Positions 6,311-17,843 of a stretch of DNA of 20,000 nt are shown in pieces. Numbering within the stretch: the first letter of the stretch is position 1; every line of letters starts with the position of its first letter. Under the pieces are notes generated by a model that was given only the letters and a program-made list of their open reading frames with translations, was not told the origin of the DNA and made no database searches. This DNA comes from an uncultured virus (IMG/VR IMGVR_UViG_3300031841_004478) (lineage: Duplodnaviria > Heunggongvirae > Uroviricota > Caudoviricetes). A program made the translations under genes and the position numbers. The DNA is taken from the IMG/VR virus record IMGVR_UViG_3300031841_004478, one strand, 5' to 3'.

Positions 6311-9300
6311 TTAATATGTTCCGCCATCAATTATAGCCTCAATATTTCCATCAACTTTAATACCACTTGATGTTCCAAGTATTCTTGCACCAGCACCGCT
6401 ATTTGTAATTGCAAGATTACCCATATATGGGTGGTTCAAACATTGATATCCAAATGAACGAGGTCCATCATCTTTTACTTTAATTTGTGCATATGAATTT
6501 CCAACATCAATATTACCAGCAGTGCCAACATATTTAATATCTGCTGCACTATCAGAAAGTAATCCAGATTTTTGATTATCCCAATAGAATCGAATATCGT
6601 GTGTTGACATTGAAGAATCATTATGATGGAATCTATATGTTACACCTGGAAGTAAATCAAGGAGCGGAGCTTGAATTTCTTTATCAGTATAAAGATGATC
6701 TGAATCATATGCGATGTAATAACCTTTTGCAGATCCTTGTTTCCAATATCTATGTTGACCAGTTTTAAATCCAGTTCTTACATAAATGTTAATTAATCCT
6801 TGATTATTTGAGTCTTGAGTAATACCAGCAGTGAGGTTTTGAGAATCTCTATTTTCATATGTTCTTTGAACTATATTATTCTTAATTCTATAATCACCGT
6901 TAGAATCATCAGTGACACTAATTAGATTTGTCTGTAATGAATCTGAAGTAAGACCACTTTCTACAACAACCGAGCCACTTAATCTTGAAATAGTAGCAGA
7001 ATCAGCTAAGATTTCTCCAAGAGAACCTTGGAATCCATTTCCACCTCTTATTTCAACCCCAGTACTAGTTGTTAATAATCTCTTTTTATCATTATGCCAT
7101 AGATTTACAATAGAAACCTCAGAAGTACCACCGGCAGTTATTACTCGCTCTAAGGCATCAGTAGTTTGAGCATATACGGCAAAATCCTGTCCATTGTCAT
7201 TAAGAGTAATTCTAAATCCACCTTGATCATTTTCAAGATTAAAATTATTTCCATCATGATAGAAATATGCGTTGCTATCGGCACCAAAATAAACTTTTTG
7301 GTTATCGCCCCAACCATTAATAATAGCTGGATATGATCCACCGTCTGCGGTACTAATGGTAGCAGTTGAAGTAGCAGAATCCCATGCAAATGCTGTTACA
7401 CCAGCAACCGAAGTTGTTCCAATACTATCTACAAAACCAGATGAATCTAGTGTAATTATTGGAACTTCTGAAGCTGAACCCCATATTCCATTATAACTTG
7501 TAGCACCTGATCTTGTAATTGTAGTAAAGTTTGCTGTACTACCAGATATATTTGTGATAACAGCCGAATCAGCAGTAAGCGTATCAATATCAACTAATGT
7601 TAAGTTAATATTATCTGCGTATAGACTATCGATATGTGCTTGACTTACATTTAATTGGCCGATATAAGCAGAATCAATATTTGCATTTGCTGATGTAAAG
7701 GTATCAATATCACCAGTTGTGACATTTAATTGCCCAACATAAGCAGAATCAAGTGAAGCATTAGCCGATGTAAGGGTATCAATATCACCAGTTGCAACAT
7801 TAAGTTGACCAATATATGCGCTATCTAATACAGCATCAGCTGAAGTCAATGTGTCTATATCAGCAGTTGTTACGTTCAATTGATCTACATAAAGTGAATC
7901 AGCATCAGCTTGACTTACGTTTAATTGTCCGATATAAGCAGAATCGAGTATAGCATTTGCCGATGTTAATGTGTCAATATCTCCTGTTGGTACATTTAAT
8001 TGAGTAATAAATGCAGAGTCAGAAGTAAATTGACTAATATCACCAGTAGCAACATTTAAATTATTTGTAGCAATCGAATCGAGAATATCACTATCAACAC
8101 GCGATTTTAAATAGTATTGATTAGTTGAACCTTCAAGTAATTGATCTGTAGTATGATTTGAAATATCAGTTACTGTACCAGTGACATTACCTGTAAGATC
8201 AGCATTTACTGTATCTGCGTATAATGTTCCAACTTGAAGCGGAGCATATTCTAATGAAGGATCAGCGAAATTAATATTTGCTTGTGGATCTGGTAAATAT
8301 TGTTGGAAAAGTTTCCATCTGAAATCCGATGGATCTCTTATGAATCCAGAATAAGCATGCGAATCTGCTGGTGGATTATAGTTACCAACAATACCAATTT
8401 GAACATCGATTGGTGAAGCTTCACCTGACCAACTATCTCCAAGATCGTGACCAGTTTCTGCTGTAAATGCAATTTTAATTCCATTTGCAAGATTTGCAAC
8501 CAAATCTCCTGATGAAAGTACAAAGCTTGTTGAACCTAATGCTGAATCAAATGGTTCTAATGATCCATATTGACTATCATAAGACCATTCAATCTTATCA
8601 CCTTCTCCACCAGATCCTACGCTATCAATGCGAACGTGGAATTCGACAACACCGTCACCAGTATAGTGTCCTGTAAGTGATGCATCATTAGTTCCAGTTC
8701 CACCAAAATTGGTAGCGGCAAGGCCAATAGTATCACCTGCACCCATTTCAATAACGGTGTCAGATACCGCTAAACTTTGAACCGAAGTTTGAACTTGAGA
8801 ACCAATAACTGTAAGGTTACCACCGATTGTAAAGTTAGCATCAACTCTACCAGAACCTGTTACACGAATTTGTTCGAAGAATTCTCTAAATGGTTTAATT
8901 TGAATACAACCACCAACTGCTGGTCCACCTTGAGAATCTTGTACAAGAACTGTACCAATTTCATATGCAAAGTTAGGATATTCAGGAGCAGTAGAAGTAA
9001 ATTTACCAGCGCTATCAGCCGATACAAATAATTTTGTACCAGGAGCATAAGCTGAAGTATCTAATCTTCCAAGTAAACCACGCTGTAATACAAGACCAAA
9101 AGTGTTATTATTAATACTATCTTTTAGAACACCAATTGTTTCATCAATAGTATTGATATCATTTGCTTGTGCTTTTTCAATTGTTGGGAAATCATTTGTT
9201 GCACCAGTTACATAAACTGGTGTTCCTTTTGGAATCATAGCACCAGAGTTATTATAAACTCTTACGACATCATCTTGACCAATTTTAATTGGAGAAGCAG

Positions 9301-11839
9301 TAGCTGGTTTATATACGAGGGCATCAGGTCCAGAGTTATAGTATACTGTACCTTCATCACTTGCAGGTTTAGTATTATCATCCCAAAGAATTGGATCAAA
9401 TCTTATAAAGTCTGCTGATACTGAATCAGCATTTAAAATATCTACACTTAAGTTTTCAATTCTTGCAGAATCAACAGTAGCAGCATCAATGTGAGCGTTT
9501 GAAACATCTAATTGTGTAGCATGTGCCGAATCAATAGTAACTTGACCTAATGTAACATTATCAATATCTGCTGTGACAACATTTAATTGATCAACATATA
9601 AGCTATCGGCATCAGCTTGACTTACATTCAATTGACCAATATAAGCGCTATCTAATATAGCATCAGCTGATGTAAGAGTATCAATATCTGCTGTAGCTAC
9701 ATTCAATTGAGTAGCATAAGCACTATCAATATCTAATTGAGAAATATGTGCTGAGTCAATATCACCTTGACTAACATTTAATTGATCAACATATAAGCTA
9801 TCCATATCAGCATTAGATAGATTCAATTGACCAACATTAATGCTATCTACAGTTAATTGACTAATAAACGCAGAGTCAGCAGTTAAATGTTTAAGAGTTA
9901 AATCTCCAGGTAAACCACTTGCAGTTTTAATAGAAAGCGAACCTGCACTATCTTGTAGTTTTACTTGGCCAAGATGAATAGTATTGCCAGAAAGATGTAG
10001 ATCTTTCCATTTATTAGTAGAAGTACCAAGATCATATGTCGAATCTGCCCAAGGTATAAGATCACCTTCAACATATGTTTCACTTCCAAGATGAATATAC
10101 ATTGTACTTGAAGCTTTTAATACACTATTTGTAGCTTCAATATAATTTGTACCATCACCTGTGTTGTGATAGATTTTTAAATCTTCACCTGCACCAAAAT
10201 TTAATTTAATGTCGTCTTGAATTAATACATTGCTGTTGAAGCTATCAATAACAGTATTAAATACTTGACCATCACCTGTACTAATTCTATAAGTATTTGT
10301 ACTTGAGATCCAACGTGTGCTATCTACTGAAGCAACTAAAACTTCTCCAATACTATCGATACGTCCATAGCTATCAACTGAAAATACTGGCATTTGTGTT
10401 GGTGAACCATATGTGCCAGCTGTTGAATCATTAATTGCTGTAAGATCAAAGAAGTTACTATCTGGATACCAATGTAAGTTATAATTGCTATTCATAGCAG
10501 CATCTAAGTCAGAGTCAAAGTTATCCTTTGAATAAACTTGGTCAACGTCAATTGAGAATTGACCTGATGCAGAATCATATAACAAGTCTCCATCAGTGCT
10601 AAAATAACCTCTAATAGTAGCAATAGATATATCATCCCCAAGTGCACTATCGAATCTTGTTCTTCTATAATATAAATTTGGTTCTGGTACACCTGGTCGT
10701 TGTGTAACAGTAAGAACACCATACATGTCTGTATGATTAGCACATTGATAATAATATGTACCAGGAACTGTTGGTGTCCAAGTTACTGTAGCAGTACCTT
10801 GTCCTGTAACTCCAGACGCTTGATCTCCAGTACCATCTCCTTGCACAGTTTTAATGTACATTGGATGATCACCAGATACAGTATTATTAAATGTAATTGT
10901 ATCATCTGTTCTTATTGTAAGAGCAGGATCTCCGCTATTAATTGAACCTGTTCTATCTGAACCTGAAACTTGATAGAAGAAATTGTTTATTGCTGAAAGA
11001 GTAAGTGTATAACTTTCAGTCGCAGGTTGAGGATCACCAGGACCTTCAACAAGATCATCAGTCGTAAATGGATTTAAATTGATATCTGTTTGAAATAATC
11101 CACCATCACTTGTATTAATGCTAAATGTACCAGAACCAAGTGAAGAATCATAACTAATTGAATCGAGTGAAGCAACAGCTACGTCTGAAATTGCTGTAAT
11201 TTGACCACGCGAATTTGTTGTAAGAACTGGAATACGAATAGAAGAACCAAATGTTCCAGAATCTGCACCTGTAGAATCAAGATCAGTTGTGATTGTAAGA
11301 ACTTGACCAATTTTTACACCGCGTGTGGACAGGCCTCGTCCACCAGCCAATGTAATAGTTTCACCATCATATATTTGAACAGAGTCAGTAAATCCATCAT
11401 CCATTGTAAAGGTAACTTCTTTTACCTTATCAACTTCTTGGTCTACATAGAATTTTGTTGTAAGAGAACTATCATCAAAAACAGTAAGCTGTCTTTGGTT
11501 AAATCTATCAGCTTCAACTCGGCCATCAAAGAAAGTACCGTTAATAGCATTAATATACAATTCATTTAATTTAGCTGGATCATTAAAATCTACAGTAATT
11601 GCATTACTATCGAAAGTAAGATAATCTACATTTAATTTACGAAGTACATTTAAATTGCGATATTCTGATGCAGCTGAGTCATATACTAAAAGATCATTGT
11701 GTTGACCTTCACCGATGTTTTGACCTGTGCCAGCATCACCTGATATATTAACACCACTTAGATTGTTAAGACTAAATGAACCAGATGTGACTCTTCGTAT
11801 TGGTGTACCAACAACGACTCTTCTTACAAAAGTTGCCAT
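6311..11839 (-). CDS. Long mosaic tail fibre protein (1842 aa)
   Basis: S/T/D/G-rich. Three GxxGS...PV...D..G.I modules, two TTD.L.EG..N.YY motifs, a DLIP.ADSTYDLG....W motif, two pentapeptide-repeat blocks, two cupredoxin-like domains and a C-terminal IDGGTY, all typical of T4-like phage fibres. Confidence 0.85.
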   Translation of the reverse strand: MATFVRRVVVGTPIRRVTSGSFSLNNLSGVNISGDAGTGQNIGEGQHNDLLVYDSAASEYRNLNVLRKLNVDYLTFDSNAITVDFNDPAKLNELYINAINGTFFDGRVEADRFNQRQLTVFDDSSLTTKFYVDQEVDKVKEVTFTMDDGFTDSVQIYDGETITLAGGRGLSTRGVKIGQVLTITTDLDSTGADSGTFGSSIRIPVLTTNSRGQITAISDVAVASLDSISYDSSLGSGTFSINTSDGGLFQTDINLNPFTTDDLVEGPGDPQPATESYTLTLSAINNFFYQVSGSDRTGSINSGDPALTIRTDDTITFNNTVSGDHPMYIKTVQGDGTGDQASGVTGQGTATVTWTPTVPGTYYYQCANHTDMYGVLTVTQRPGVPEPNLYYRRTRFDSALGDDISIATIRGYFSTDGDLLYDSASGQFSIDVDQVYSKDNFDSDLDAAMNSNYNLHWYPDSNFFDLTAINDSTAGTYGSPTQMPVFSVDSYGRIDSIGEVLVASVDSTRWISSTNTYRISTGDGQVFNTVIDSFNSNVLIQDDIKLNFGAGEDLKIYHNTGDGTNYIEATNSVLKASSTMYIHLGSETYVEGDLIPWADSTYDLGTSTNKWKDLHLSGNTIHLGQVKLQDSAGSLSIKTASGLPGDLTLKHLTADSAFISQLTVDSINVGQLNLSNADMDSLYVDQLNVSQGDIDSAHISQLDIDSAYATQLNVATADIDTLTSADAILDSAYIGQLNVSQADADSLYVDQLNVVTADIDNVTLGQVTIDSAHATQLDVSNAHIDAATVDSARIENLSVDILNADSVSADFIRFDPILWDDNTKPASDEGTVYYNSGPDALVYKPATASPIKIGQDDVVRVYNNSGAMIPKGTPVYVTGATNDFPTIEKAQANDINTIDETIGVLKDSINNNTFGLVLQRGLLGRLDTSAYAPGTKLFVSADSAGKFTSTAPEYPNFAYEIGTVLVQDSQGGPAVGGCIQIKPFREFFEQIRVTGSGRVDANFTIGGNLTVIGSQVQTSVQSLAVSDTVIEMGAGDTIGLAATNFGGTGTNDASLTGHYTGDGVVEFHVRIDSVGSGGEGDKIEWSYDSQYGSLEPFDSALGSTSFVLSSGDLVANLANGIKIAFTAETGHDLGDSWSGEASPIDVQIGIVGNYNPPADSHAYSGFIRDPSDFRWKLFQQYLPDPQANINFADPSLEYAPLQVGTLYADTVNADLTGNVTGTVTDISNHTTDQLLEGSTNQYYLKSRVDSDILDSIATNNLNVATGDISQFTSDSAFITQLNVPTGDIDTLTSANAILDSAYIGQLNVSQADADSLYVDQLNVTTADIDTLTSADAVLDSAYIGQLNVATGDIDTLTSANASLDSAYVGQLNVTTGDIDTFTSANANIDSAYIGQLNVSQAHIDSLYADNINLTLVDIDTLTADSAVITNISGSTANFTTITRSGATSYNGIWGSASEVPIITLDSSGFVDSIGTTSVAGVTAFAWDSATSTATISTADGGSYPAIINGWGDNQKVYFGADSNAYFYHDGNNFNLENDQGGFRITLNDNGQDFAVYAQTTDALERVITAGGTSEVSIVNLWHNDKKRLLTTSTGVEIRGGNGFQGSLGEILADSATISRLSGSVVVESGLTSDSLQTNLISVTDDSNGDYRIKNNIVQRTYENRDSQNLTAGITQDSNNQGLINIYVRTGFKTGQHRYWKQGSAKGYYIAYDSDHLYTDKEIQAPLLDLLPGVTYRFHHNDSSMSTHDIRFYWDNQKSGLLSDSAADIKYVGTAGNIDVGNSYAQIKVKDDGPRSFGYQCLNHPYMGNLAITNSGAGARILGTSSGIKVDGNIEAIIDGGTY
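7520..8059 (-). repeat. Pentapeptide repeat block B (36 pentads; 25-aa higher-order unit LNVxT-GDIDT-LTSAN-AxLDS-AYIGQ)
   Basis: Translation parses without indels as LNVAT/GDISQ/FTSDS/AFITQ/.../ANFTT; 15-nt and 75-nt periodicity in the DNA. Confidence 0.9.
9407..9901 (-). repeat. Pentapeptide repeat block A (33 pentads)
   Basis: Translation parses as LTLKH/LTADS/AFISQ/LTVDS/INVGQ/.../VSADF with hydrophobic or small residues at positions 1 and 3. Confidence 0.9.
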
Positions 11840-13210: not shown

Positions 13211-13850
13211 CCAGTTTGAAGAATACGCAGACTATATAGAAAATAAGCAAAGAAATTATGCACTAAAGTATGGAGCAACATATGCTCTTCATACGCCTGA
13301 TGATATAGACAATTATGATGACTTACAATTAAATAAAATATTGTTAGCAGAAAAATATGCTCAACAGTTTGATCAAGTATTATATATTGATTATGACGTC
13401 ATTCCAACTGATTATGCGCCTGACATTTTTAGAAAAGTAAATGGTCTAAGCTTATATCCAACATTTCCAAAAGTTGGTATGAAAGAATATGATAAGCTTT
13501 TAAATAAACAAATGATGTTAGCGTCTGAAGGTCGTAAATATAATAATATCATTTACAACACAGGTGTTTTCCATTGTGATAAAGCATCAATGGAAGAATT
13601 AAAGTTTAGTGAAAGATTCGATGAATGTAAAGAGCTATGTTCAGACTTTAATAACGAAGTTTACATCAGTTATATCATAGAACGATATGGTTGTAAACAC
13701 AATTTTTTACCAATGTGTTGGAATTATATCTTAGATGGATTTCAAGAAATGCCAAACGCTGCAGGATATTTTCATCACTATCATCATAAAAAATTTTGGT
13801 GCCTCCTCCCGGACTCGAACCGGGACGCTATTACTAGCGAGAGATTTTAA
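13170..13850 (+). CDS. GT-A fold nucleotide-diphospho-sugar transferase, paralogue of the upstream gene
   Basis: DQVLYIDYDV (DxD), YNTGVF, NNE and WNY...FHHYHHKKF. GTG start; 3' end overlaps tRNA-Leu antisense. Confidence 0.75.
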   Translation: MSKIIFTQYLPLNNQFEEYADYIENKQRNYALKYGATYALHTPDDIDNYDDLQLNKILLAEKYAQQFDQVLYIDYDVIPTDYAPDIFRKVNGLSLYPTFPKVGMKEYDKLLNKQMMLASEGRKYNNIIYNTGVFHCDKASMEELKFSERFDECKELCSDFNNEVYISYIIERYGCKHNFLPMCWNYILDGFQEMPNAAGYFHHYHHKKFWCLLPDSNRDAITSERF

Positions 13851-13882
13851 GTCTCTTGTGTCTACCATTCCACCAAGGAGGC
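13797..13882 (-). tRNA. trnL: tRNA-Leu(UAA)
   Basis: GCCTCCT/AGGAGGC acceptor stem, A73 and CCA; AGAGA-CTTAAAA-TCTCT anticodon arm; long variable arm CGCTA-GTAA-TAGCG; TTCGAGT T-loop. Confidence 0.97.
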
Positions 13883-13884
13883 AT

Positions 13885-13960
13885 TGGAGCGGGCAATCAG
13901 GTTCGAACTGACGACATTCAGATTGGAAATCTGACGCTCTACCAACTGAGCTATACCCGC
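13885..13960 (-). tRNA. trnG: tRNA-Gly(UCC)
   Basis: GCGGGTA/TGCCCGC acceptor stem, U73 and CCA; TCAGA-TTTCCAA-TCTGA anticodon arm; 76 nt. Confidence 0.97.
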
Positions 13961-13966
13961 ATAATT

Positions 13967-14152
13967 TGGCCCGCCCTAGAATCACCGCTATGCAGATCAT
14001 CTTTGATTTCATCCTGCACCGACGGGCAATGCAGGCATAGACTGTTACTCCACACATAGATTACCAACAGTCTAATCTCATCTATGTGACCTCAACATTT
14101 AGAGGATTTTCTGGGCGGGAGTGGAGGGTTCGAACCTTCTTAAACGCTCCCG
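13967..14152 (-). ncRNA. Candidate structured non-coding RNA in tRNA cluster (5' tRNA-minihelix, pseudoknot, terminal stem plus CCA)
   Basis: Fills the gap between tRNA-Pro and tRNA-Gly with 6-nt AT-rich spacers on each side. CCCGCCC (14113-14119) pairs with GGGCGGG (13970-13976), followed by CCA. Crossing 9-bp helices at 14080-88/14053-61 and 14066-74/14038-46; hairpins at 14090-14105 and 14013-14035; T-arm-like GAAGG-TTCGAAC-CCTCC. Confidence 0.7.
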
Positions 14153-14158
14153 TTATAT

Positions 14159-14235
14159 TGGTCTCGGTAGCTGGATTCGAACCAACGACCTCTAGTACCC
14201 AAAACTAGCGCACTACCAGGCTGTGCTATACCGAG
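14159..14235 (-). tRNA. trnP: tRNA-Pro(UGG)
   Basis: CTCGGTA/TACCGAG acceptor stem, A73 and CCA; CTAGT-TTTGGGT-ACTAG anticodon arm; 77 nt. Confidence 0.97.
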
Positions 14236-14343
14236 TTAACCTTGTCCTCTATATTTTTTAAAACTACGTTTTGTGGATTTATTCATTGACGAAAACTTTA
14301 CATTTCGTTTTCCGATAGAAGTTTTCTTATTACCTTTAGCCAT
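14236..14343 (-). CDS. Small very basic protein (35 aa) ending KKYRGQG
   Basis: MAKGNKKTSIGKRNVKFSSMNKSTKRSFKKYRGQG; SD GAGG upstream of the ATG; stop abuts the tRNA-Pro 5' end. The KKYRGQG ending is recalled from small conserved marine phage proteins. Not in the ORF track (short). Confidence 0.8.
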   Translation of the reverse strand: MAKGNKKTSIGKRNVKFSSMNKSTKRSFKKYRGQG

Positions 14344-14361
14344 AATTTTCCTCACTTTAAT

Positions 14362-14438
14362 TGGCGATTGCGGAAGGACTCGAACCCTCAACCTACAGAT
14401 TAGAAGTCTGTTGCTCTATCCAGTTGAGCTACGCAACC
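14362..14438 (-). tRNA. trnR: tRNA-Arg(UCU)
   Basis: GGTTGCG/CGCAATC acceptor stem, G73 and CCA; ACAGA-CTTCTAA-TCTGT anticodon arm; 77 nt. Confidence 0.97.
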
Positions 14439-15149: not shown

Positions 15150-15220
15150 CTTTTGATATATCTATCCTACTACAAGTAAAAAGTAATGTACATGCTTTTT
15201 TTCATTTTTTTTCGTTTTTT
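15150..15220 (-). promoter_or_regulatory. Sigma70-like early promoter, copy 1
   Basis: -35 TGTACA (15187-15192), 17-nt spacer, -10 TAGGAT (15164-15169), upstream A-tracts (UP element); motif repeated at 16578-16606. Confidence 0.75.
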
Positions 15221-16647: not shown

Positions 16648-17205
16648 TCATTTATTTAGGTTTAAAGTTGCCTCTATTTTTTCTCTGATCACATAGTGCG
16701 CGTACATATCATTTAACCATGTATGAGCATAAGGTTCAATACCAAATCCAGTCCAATCGAAAGCAATAGAATCTAAATCTATTAAACAATAATTTCCTGG
16801 GTGTCTCATAAGAATGTTATCAATTGAAATGTCAATATGCTTAATTAATTTACCTTTATAAGCAGAATAATTTATAAATGCTGAATTAATATTAGAAACT
16901 ATTTTTATGCATTGTAAAATAGATTTGCCCCAATATGTAATATCACCAGTTTTAAGACATAAATTATGTTGATCGTCAATCCAGTCCCTCATACTTTTTC
17001 CAGAATATTTTTCCATTATTATTTCTTCACCCGGCGTATATGAAATAATAGTTGGTAAAAAATCCATATATTGCGCTAGCTCGAAATAGTTATTAAACCA
17101 TTCTTGATTATAATTTTTTCCATATTTTTTACTAAATTTTTTAATGACTGTATTATCATCACAATATACTGACGATTCTCCTTTCGTTTCTTGTAGTAAC
17201 TTCAT
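16648..17205 (-). CDS. Protein-kinase-like fold enzyme (small-molecule, sugar or protein kinase)
   Basis: VIKK lysine, IIMEK hinge, catalytic loop HIDISIDNIL (HxDxxxxN) and LIDLD Mg-binding motif. Confidence 0.8.
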   Translation of the reverse strand: MKLLQETKGESSVYCDDNTVIKKFSKKYGKNYNQEWFNNYFELAQYMDFLPTIISYTPGEEIIMEKYSGKSMRDWIDDQHNLCLKTGDITYWGKSILQCIKIVSNINSAFINYSAYKGKLIKHIDISIDNILMRHPGNYCLIDLDSIAFDWTGFGIEPYAHTWLNDMYAHYVIREKIEATLNLNK

Positions 17206-17843
17206 TTTTTTATTTTTTTCTCATGGACTATAGCTTCAACATTATCACTTACTGGCATTTTAAATCCATTATGAATATGATGAATATTAAATTTTGTCTT
17301 ATTAAACTCTTTAAACATACCTGTCCAAATAGGTCTCCAATTTGTAGAGAGTTTATTATTCTGACGAGGATCTCTTACAGAACTAAGATAAAAATCTGAA
17401 CAACTATTTAAATTAAAATCAAACATAGAATCAAATCCCCACATATTGATTTCATCTGCCTTTAATTTATTTGCCGCATAATGTACCGCCATATGGCCAC
17501 AACTAAAATTTGTGTACATATTTCCTTGCGTATCGTCTTTATTTACTTTTGCATATGGAGGTAAATTTAAATAAAATTCTTTTACTTGAGAAGCATGTTT
17601 CATATAGAAACCTGGATATTTTTCCATATGAATTTTTGGACGATAGCCTAAAATCCATTGACCTGGTGCTTGTAAAGATCCATCAGTCAATGCTTTCATA
17701 AATTTAAAATCAACTATGCATGTTGCATAAGCATCTCGCACAGGAAAGGGAGGAAGATTACATGTAAGCTTTAATCCTTTACGAGGTTCTCTTTGATAAA
17801 GGCTTGCCCAATCTCCGTTACCAATTACATGAACTACTTTCAT
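17202..17843 (-). CDS. Maf/DUF115- or sialyltransferase-like Rossmann enzyme (putative nonulosonate-type glycosyltransferase)
   Basis: HVIGNG, TCN, IVD, SCG..A...A and I.MWGFD motif series. Confidence 0.55.
   Translation of the reverse strand: MKVVHVIGNGDWASLYQREPRKGLKLTCNLPPFPVRDAYATCIVDFKFMKALTDGSLQAPGQWILGYRPKIHMEKYPGFYMKHASQVKEFYLNLPPYAKVNKDDTQGNMYTNFSCGHMAVHYAANKLKADEINMWGFDSMFDFNLNSCSDFYLSSVRDPRQNNKLSTNWRPIWTGMFKEFNKTKFNIHHIHNGFKMPVSDNVEAIVHEKKIKK

Follow-up and report, generated by a model that had tools for sequence, protein, structure and literature searches.

An uncatalogued CCA-ended RNA element with predicted pseudoknots in the tRNA operon of an uncultured phage

What occupies the 198-nt spacer between tRNA-Pro and tRNA-Gly in the tRNA operon of an uncultured phage? 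The window analysed here, a stretch of 20,000 nucleotides from IMG/VR record IMGVR_UViG_3300031841_004478, is phage DNA, as indicated by PHROGs matches for tail-fibre assembly and glutaredoxin-type genes. The nearest related record (G001) contains this region in identical form; its 26,398 bases are rated 17% complete, which points to a genome of about 155 kb, and we infer that the phage is a marine, T4-like one. An initial annotation of the window had marked in this spacer, at 14119-13967 of the minus strand, a CCA-terminated and pseudoknotted RNA that lacked both an anticodon arm and a credible ORF. Every helix listed there is present on the minus strand, at the positions given below, and the questions that follow are how far the element extends, which of its helices can coexist, and what such an RNA might do among tRNAs.

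The tRNA operon and its spacer

On the minus strand the operon runs tRNA-Arg, small ORF, tRNA-Pro, the spacer, tRNA-Gly and tRNA-Leu. Its first tRNA, tRNA-Arg(TCT) at 14362-14438, and the upstream neighbour of the element, tRNA-Pro(TGG) at 14159-14235, are called by both ARAGORN and Rfam; the downstream neighbour, tRNA-Gly(TCC) at 13885-13960, is called by ARAGORN, and tRNA-Leu(TAA) at 13797-13882 is the last gene, followed by a T run. Both neighbours that had been named for the element are confirmed. Between tRNA-Arg and tRNA-Pro, an ORF (14236-14343, minus strand; phrog_17967) encodes a basic protein of 35 aa with annotated relatives in Pelagibacter, Methylophilales and Roseobacter phages, the best being those of Kyanoviridae HTVC008M and Melnitz. 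A paralogue of this protein, 66% identical, lies about 1.7 kb upstream (L002:1289-1372), and relatives are encoded in 475 viral loci. A tRNA-type gene is present in six of the best 80 of these 475 loci, and one locus for the neighbour protein was found among genome contigs.

The spacer has a GC content of 0.46; the window as a whole has 0.34, and the coding spacer between tRNA-Arg and tRNA-Pro 0.28. Two ORFs cross the element (13731-14057, minus strand, and 13856-14059, plus strand) and are not credible, because both run through tRNA genes, in agreement with the initial view of the element as non-coding. A scan for promoters and terminators returned four sites where 5.4 were expected, none of them informative, and the T4 late-promoter word occurs at chance level. 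By eye, a possible early promoter lies at 15164-15192 (minus strand), ahead of the ORFs that lead into the tRNA operon; it has 8 of 12 consensus matches, a 17-nt spacer and A tracts upstream, and falls below the scan threshold.

The spacer does not hold a further tRNA (RF00005): no cloverleaf with an anticodon arm is found in it, and neither ARAGORN nor Rfam makes a tRNA call there. Rfam 15 gives no match in 13961-14158 up to E 5, for manA, GOLLD, ROOL, YrlA and ToxI as for its other families, so that the element is indeed uncatalogued. When folded without knots, it has a z of -2.84, with 3 of 200 shuffles as good. These data support the view of a non-coding element, uncatalogued and structured, that ends in CCA and sits within the tRNA operon of a phage.

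A tRNA top half, two knots and a competing closing stem

The stretch pointed out initially is real, but it starts at 14152 instead of 14119, and a second knot within it had been overlooked. Its first part, at 14152-14112 of the minus strand, resembles the top half of a tRNA without an anticodon arm, hereafter the stub. A 6-bp acceptor stem (14152-47/14121-16), with a C-A mismatch at the 7:66 position, is combined with a T stem (14139-35/14127-23) containing one A-C mismatch, a canonical T loop (14134-28), a C discriminator at 14115 and CCA at 14114-12. Acceptor stem, T arm and NCCA stand in the register of a tRNA, and 7 nt separate the acceptor and T stems where the D and anticodon arms would stand. 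A descriptor of the stub found no match in 3000 shuffles, a count flattered by the fact that the descriptor was written after the element had been seen.

A seawater RNA-library contig (X7 record 29; 187 nt, depth 110) aligns to 14235-14104 of the window, beginning at the first base of tRNA-Pro; it differs by two substitutions and by 19 extra bases located between 14142 and 14141. The substitution at 14138 turns the A-C mismatch of the window into a G-C pair and yields a perfect 5-bp T stem, and the extra bases form, by eye, one hairpin with GG in its loop as in a D loop. They are bounded by a 5-nt direct repeat, and the stub of the window therefore looks like a deleted form relative to X7, with a 19-nt loss and a T-stem mismatch. 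A second contig (X22 record 9) leaves the window at 14142, the same insertion site, with 18 bases to spare. A more tRNA-like allele of the stub thus exists. In X7 record 29 the final 36 bases are unlike the window, the divergence beginning after 14104, 8 nt past the stub CCA, which is a weak hint that other sequence can follow the stub. Being contigs, X7 and X22 report presence only, and strand, start and expression are not readable from them. Altogether 24 sequencing runs matched, all with small shares, and four of the 24 were mapped onto the window; the stub is covered in one RNA library, and 13970-14103 is uncovered in all four mapped runs, which proves nothing. Most of the cover comes from the tRNAs of other organisms.

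A 4-bp hairpin (14090-14105, minus strand; 14105-02/14093-90), described initially and with a pairing probability of 0.51, lies near the 5' end of the knot module. Knot 1 (14038-14088, minus strand) is an H-type pseudoknot made of the two crossing perfect 9-bp stems listed in the initial annotation, S1 at 14088-80/14061-53 (9 bp) and S2 at 14074-66(65)/14046(47)-38 (9-10 bp), with loops of about 5, 3-4 and 5-6 nt. Among 2000 dinucleotide shuffles, one contains such a pair of crossing perfect 9-bp stems. Across the 20 kb, 4 of 794 sliding windows contain one, all four lying over the element, and related phage loci yield 3 such windows out of 13,628. With stems of 8 bp, 10 of the 794 windows pass, at four places (the element and three others), and this weaker version is not rare. 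Crossing 8-bp inverted repeats at ~9076-9750 and 17500-17680 lie inside coding sequence, in a repeat-rich long ORF (6311-11839) and in an ORF at 17202-17843, and are probably due to chance.

Knot 2 (13969-14035, minus strand), also of H-type, is the knot that had been missed. Its S1 (14035-30(29)/14018(19)-13) has 6-7 bp, with a loop 1 of 1-2 nt, and its S2 (14027-21/13975-69, 7 bp, one U-G) runs into the last CCA; loop 3 measures 37 nt and has room for small hairpins. The hairpin 14035-27/14021-13 with two U-G pairs, listed initially, is present in the same stretch. The terminal CCA (13967-13969, minus strand) is preceded by G (RCCA) and lies 6 nt before the 5' end of tRNA-Gly, and a full-length S2 would include the discriminator and the first C of this CCA among its paired bases. 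A knot before CCA is found in 3 of 3000 shuffles, again a flattering count from a descriptor written after the element had been seen, and Knot 2 is the only match in 45,906 distinct tRNA-flanking bases of the loci examined. All knot stems are intact, three of them perfect and one with a single U-G.

The spacer thus holds three separate non-random features, namely the stub, Knot 1, and Knot 2 with its CCA, and we count this for a reading in two modules. The structure is real and non-random, and the spacer element is probably a real RNA gene. The initial annotation had drawn it differently, with a 7-bp closing stem (14119-13/13976-70) directly followed by the CCA at 13969-67 and extended by 14112-09/13981-78. 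That stem is present as drawn; its standing as a real closure is doubtful, its strands being shared with the tRNA top half and the second knot. The 5' strand (14113-14119, minus strand, pairing with 13976-13970) is the 3' acceptor strand of the stub plus CCA, and the 3' strand is the S2 strand of Knot 2. Using both strands, the closing stem excludes the stub acceptor stem and Knot 2 S2.

If the closing stem were the true one, the spacer would yield a single RNA of 152-153 nt, a 4.5S-like long-stem substrate of RNase P that carries Knot 1 and hairpins, with the T arm as a decaying leftover. The seven G-C pairs plus 4 bp dominate nested folding, where the closing stem reaches a probability of 0.996 in the ensemble of the whole spacer and the stub acceptor stem 0.0. 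Constrained energies are -57.9 kcal/mol for the closing-stem fold against -43.7 plus -16.4 kcal/mol (S2) for the other, before any knot penalty, and folded as separate nested pieces the parts are no better than shuffles (z -0.84, -1.12 and -0.55). The stub of the window is, moreover, damaged, and a stem directly before CCA also occurs in tRNA-like RNAs of related arrays (L223, L220). Yet nested programs can score neither knots, including Knot 2, nor tRNA tertiary contacts. A 7-bp stem before CCA appears in 72 of 3000 shuffles, the commonest by chance among the features scored, while the two folds that it would break up appear in 0 and 3, and the departure of the X7 contig shortly past the stub CCA argues against a single RNA as well. 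When the letters of the G-rich 3' strand are permuted, 1 of the 7 arrangements matches the C-rich end of the stub, so the closing stem comes cheaply once stub and knot exist, and it would be unable to form once the stub had been cut at its CCA. We lean modestly towards the stub plus two knots as the fold, consider the closing-stem fold rather unlikely, and regard the single closed RNA as an unlikely product of the spacer.

The two folds are mutually exclusive and lie within a few kcal/mol of each other once the knot penalty is allowed for, and several other exchangeable helices exist (14040-35/13993-88, 14126-21/14053-48, and 14018-14/13995-91, the last already noted initially). Both facts suit an RNA with two states, in which maturation of the RNA itself or of the neighbouring tRNAs would be timed by folding: the closing stem would shut a 186-nt precursor and hide the stub from RNase P, and stub plus knot would be the processable or active state. 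Against such a switch, the G-rich and C-rich strands cross-pair easily, as the permutations indicate and as does a third partner of the G-rich strand at 14036-31; it has no evident ligand or trigger and no comparative support, and we hold it to be decidedly improbable. Because the element is shorter than 200 nt, is accessible to in vitro synthesis, and offers a choice between two exclusive folds that predict clearly different things, its processing, charging, protein binding and any part in counter-defence lend themselves to direct tests.

Distribution of the element and other RNAs of related arrays

Three syntenic relatives lack the element. L213, in which the neighbour protein is 98% identical, has the order Arg-ORF-Pro-Leu, without the spacer element and without tRNA-Gly, and L062 and L063 have the same gene order with the same two absences. 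Absence in three of three points to an accessory cassette. When L213:4628-4993 is compared with 13797-14438 of the window, the tRNA-Arg, -Pro and -Leu alleles are visibly different and the neighbour proteins 79-98% identical, which suggests that tRNA genes are exchanged within the array.

In all homologue searches the sole second copy of the knots was the identical one in G001 and its loci. Against 50,697 phage records, blastn returned nothing for the 198-nt query at E 1 and 15 short chance matches for a 90-nt query at E 10. Three pattern scans of viral contigs gave 2 matches (the element's own and one chance), 12 (its own and 11 without a tRNA) and 5 (its own and four without a tRNA); a looser scan gave at least 120, and none of the 120 checked fits. 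The metagenome contigs contained one match, in GC-rich coding DNA, and the genome contigs none. With BLAST of whole related records, matches of 14-15 nt were obtained in 1 of 50 and 2 of 50, the one inspected being coding-like, and nhmmer over related loci detected no knot homologue. Single-sequence covariance models (R1 and R2) reached a best E of 0.68 in 100 loci and of 0.25 in 35 loci, gave no match in a further set of 37 loci, and on whole records matched 1 of 48 and 1 of 50, G001 only. Models built from one sequence have little power, and the records are mostly fragments; the figures therefore do not establish that a homologue is absent. The initial annotation had envisaged covarying homologues from marine phage tRNA clusters; in the searches made the knots have no homologue and hence no covariation. 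A literature search that covered few subscription papers returned no description of this RNA, and among the 10,006 viral candidate RNAs of PMC10690425 no match was present in three of its six supplements.

The element could also be a non-functional relic, with a tRNA gene eroded to its top half next to a once-functional RNA that was acquired by recombination, in a tRNA array that changes fast, and is now decaying. The 19-nt loss between direct repeats and the T-stem mismatch relative to X7 fit such a history, as do the absence from all three syntenic relatives, the lack of a homologue in the searches made, the lack of cover over the knots in the four mapped runs, and the presence of another stub with truncated arms elsewhere (L003/L233). 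However, decay would not have spared all four knot stems, which are intact, and the tRNA genes are themselves patchy among relatives, tRNA-Gly being missing too; as tRNA genes come and go between relatives, patchiness does not mean lost function. We therefore judge a relic improbable.

Larger phages, reached via the neighbour gene, carry a knotted tRNA-like RNA in their tRNA arrays (G022, G021, G049 and G014). This RNA of 85-90 nt has an acceptor stem, a T arm and CCA, and a knotted core replaces the D and anticodon arms (L223:1010-1097, plus strand; L220:865-952 and L226:460-548, minus strand; partial in L231:1-52). Pairing holds in all 57 cells, and 7 of the 19 pairs are changed on both sides, a figure reached by 0 of 500 shuffles and compared with 0-1 in slid controls, in a count that comes from three sequences (G021, G022 and G049), two of them close, with the structure drawn from these same sequences. 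It has no Rfam match at gathering score. Homology of our element to this family was rejected, 82 of 500 shuffles scoring as well. A covarying, anticodon-less and CCA-ended RNA in related arrays suggests that the kind is under selection in such operons. Given that anticodon-less, CCA-ended RNAs are known from other phage tRNA arrays, T4 RNAD among them, the new class raised initially as a possibility was an overstatement.

Several other RNAs were observed in these arrays. GC-rich hairpin RNAs of 55-75 nt stand directly after the last tRNA in L217, L219, L225, L228, L229 and L346; they have a GCCCTC loop word, and in several cases a T run and a sigma-70-like promoter come next (by eye). The GCCCTC word, present also in a loop of T4 RNAD, is complementary to GAGGGC before the start codons of nearby early genes, again by eye. 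Just upstream of tRNA-Asn in L220, L223 and L226 lies a conserved element of ~60 nt without an Rfam match, whose AACGG hairpin loop can pair with an upstream CCGT and whose stem shows compensatory differences between L223 and L226 (both by eye). Two related, stem-closed RNAs of ~60 nt, found in the 69-nt Asn-Ser spacer of L221 and upstream of tRNA-Ser in L230, have an internal TCTGATAAA word in common and no Rfam match. A GC-rich stretch of 105 nt (L047:1683-1787, the Arg-Leu spacer of L228) likely forms, by eye, an H-type knot within a closing stem, plus a second hairpin. The other tRNA stub (L003:350-391, the Ala-Gly spacer of L233) has a short acceptor stem, a T loop and ACCA in 42 nt. Further uncatalogued RNAs of this kind suggest that tRNA mimics are commonly carried by the tRNA operons of phages.

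A proposed role and known counterparts

As the best explanation of the whole, which we advance tentatively and rate a little short of an even chance, we propose an accessory cassette of two modules that is processed by the host and gives an uncharged mimic or decoy of tRNA ends. The 198-nt spacer cassette would be co-transcribed with the tRNAs and excised by host tRNA-processing enzymes. The cleavage site of RNase P lies at a fixed distance from the elbow, measured along the stack of T and acceptor stems, and the enzyme seems not to need the D loop (PMC4919913); the stub should accordingly be cut at 14152. That cut, before 14152, would be guided by the T loop of the stub and its 12-step acceptor/T stack, and a second one would fall before tRNA-Gly at 13960. 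Cleavage of the A/U-rich trailer after 14112 would leave a stub of 41 nt, or of 60 nt for the longer allele, which may mainly be a processing handle, and would also free a knot RNA of ~140 nt (about 14108-13967). In bacterial tRNA processing, 3' exonucleases trim trailers to CCA, and the 6-nt trailer left on the knot RNA by the tRNA-Gly cut would be trimmed in this way.

Within the knot RNA, the four stems may stack into one long, nuclease-resistant rod, the last 12-14 bp of which would end in G-CCA, as a pseudoknotted look-alike of an acceptor arm without T arm or anticodon. The pairing of the discriminator and first C by S2 would hinder a cut by RNase P and keep the RNA whole; at full length it would also hide the CCA end that a decoy should show. 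By the usual identity rules of the synthetases, neither RNA end shows an obvious identity set, so the RNA is expected to be uncharged. Such a stable decoy of tRNA ends could occupy host proteins that bind or attack CCA ends and spare the phage tRNAs. Taken on its own, the decoy role is a guess that we consider possible and somewhat doubtful. A more specific version, in which a knotted acceptor-arm RNA released by a mini-tRNA, possibly with a folding switch, serves as a nuclease-proof decoy against anti-phage tRNA nucleases or tRNA-surveillance enzymes, seems quite unlikely. If this version were true, the element would represent a structural class new among the counter-defence RNAs of phages, and a testable role would be at hand for the RNAs of phage tRNA clusters that still lack an explanation.

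Could the element instead be a catalytic or sequestering RNA of a known type? It might be a theta ribozyme that trims tRNA 3' ends, part of a two-piece tmRNA, or an antitoxin decoy of the ToxI type, directed at defence by type III toxin-antitoxin systems. ToxI RNAs, too, are knots of the H type, and AAAU words flank the knots here; by eye, however, the spacer has no tandem repeat units of the kind found in ToxI arrays. Melnitz, a related marine phage, carries a permuted tmRNA (ssrA), in which a T arm and CCA likewise precede a run of knots. Yet our stub has its own 5' acceptor strand and the element has one third of the length, the similarity to Melnitz ssrA is equalled by 260 of 500 shuffles, and no ARAGORN or Rfam match to a one- or two-piece tmRNA, no G3-U70 pair and no tag frame ending in alanines are found. 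Theta ribozymes, HDV-like and known from gut phages, adjoin phage tRNA 3' ends and have double pseudoknots (PMC10879173), and here too a pseudoknotted RNA stands beside a phage tRNA. Nevertheless, a loose descriptor for the HDV-like nested double pseudoknot (P1-P2-P3, catalytic C in J4/2), used without a positive control, gave 0 matches, no structure in HDV order starts within 5 nt of the tRNA 3' end, the knots are tandem and not nested, and there is no hammerhead core. With the Rfam result above, these observations give no support to the ribozyme suggested initially and make any such known type very improbable.

tRNA top halves act as processing signals in the t-elements of plant mitochondria and in MALAT1 mascRNA. 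Like our stub, these combine an acceptor stem with a T arm and CCA in the register of a tRNA and have no anticodon arm; here, though, the stub precedes a knot RNA in the operon of a bacterial virus, and the resemblance is an analogy only. The knotted end has a counterpart in the tRNA-like ends of TYMV and TMV, with which it shares an H-type knot directly before the 3' CCA, in our case at the level of sequence and with other pairings competing. The tandem knots also recall the pseudoknot domain of TMV, where tandem knots lie upstream of the end. However, the knot of the phage element stands without the T, D and anticodon arms that would complete an L shape (14035-13967 contains no T loop), has longer stems and a 37-nt loop 3, follows no mRNA, has no Rfam match and belongs to a DNA phage. 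H-type knots with a 3' RCCA are substrates of RNase P, and so are the tRNA-like ends of TMV and TYMV (PMC12710915); plant-virus tRNA-like structures are aminoacylated (PMC4810235).

The position of the element is that of the T4 RNAs RNAC (species 1, 139 nt) and RNAD (species 2, 119 nt), whose function is given as unknown in PMC3014915 and PMC9697503. They, too, are small non-coding RNAs in a phage tRNA cluster, ~6 nt from their neighbours, and our element lies on the same strand as the tRNAs of its cluster and a few bases from them. With a predicted knot RNA of ~140 nt, in a range of 140-186 nt, against about 120-140 nt for the T4 RNAs, the element is comparable to them in place and size. There is no sequence similarity to RNAC or RNAD, 203 and 234 of 500 shuffles scoring as well. 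T4 RNAD ends in an encoded CCA and T4 RNAC has a T arm, whereas here the T arm is at the 5' end, in a separate mini-tRNA, and the 3' end is a knot. The element is thus a different design for the slot of the T4 cluster RNAs, a tRNA handle followed by two knots that end in CCA. Our best guess is that it works like a T4-type cluster RNA with a knotted end of the plant-virus kind, while being a member of neither family.
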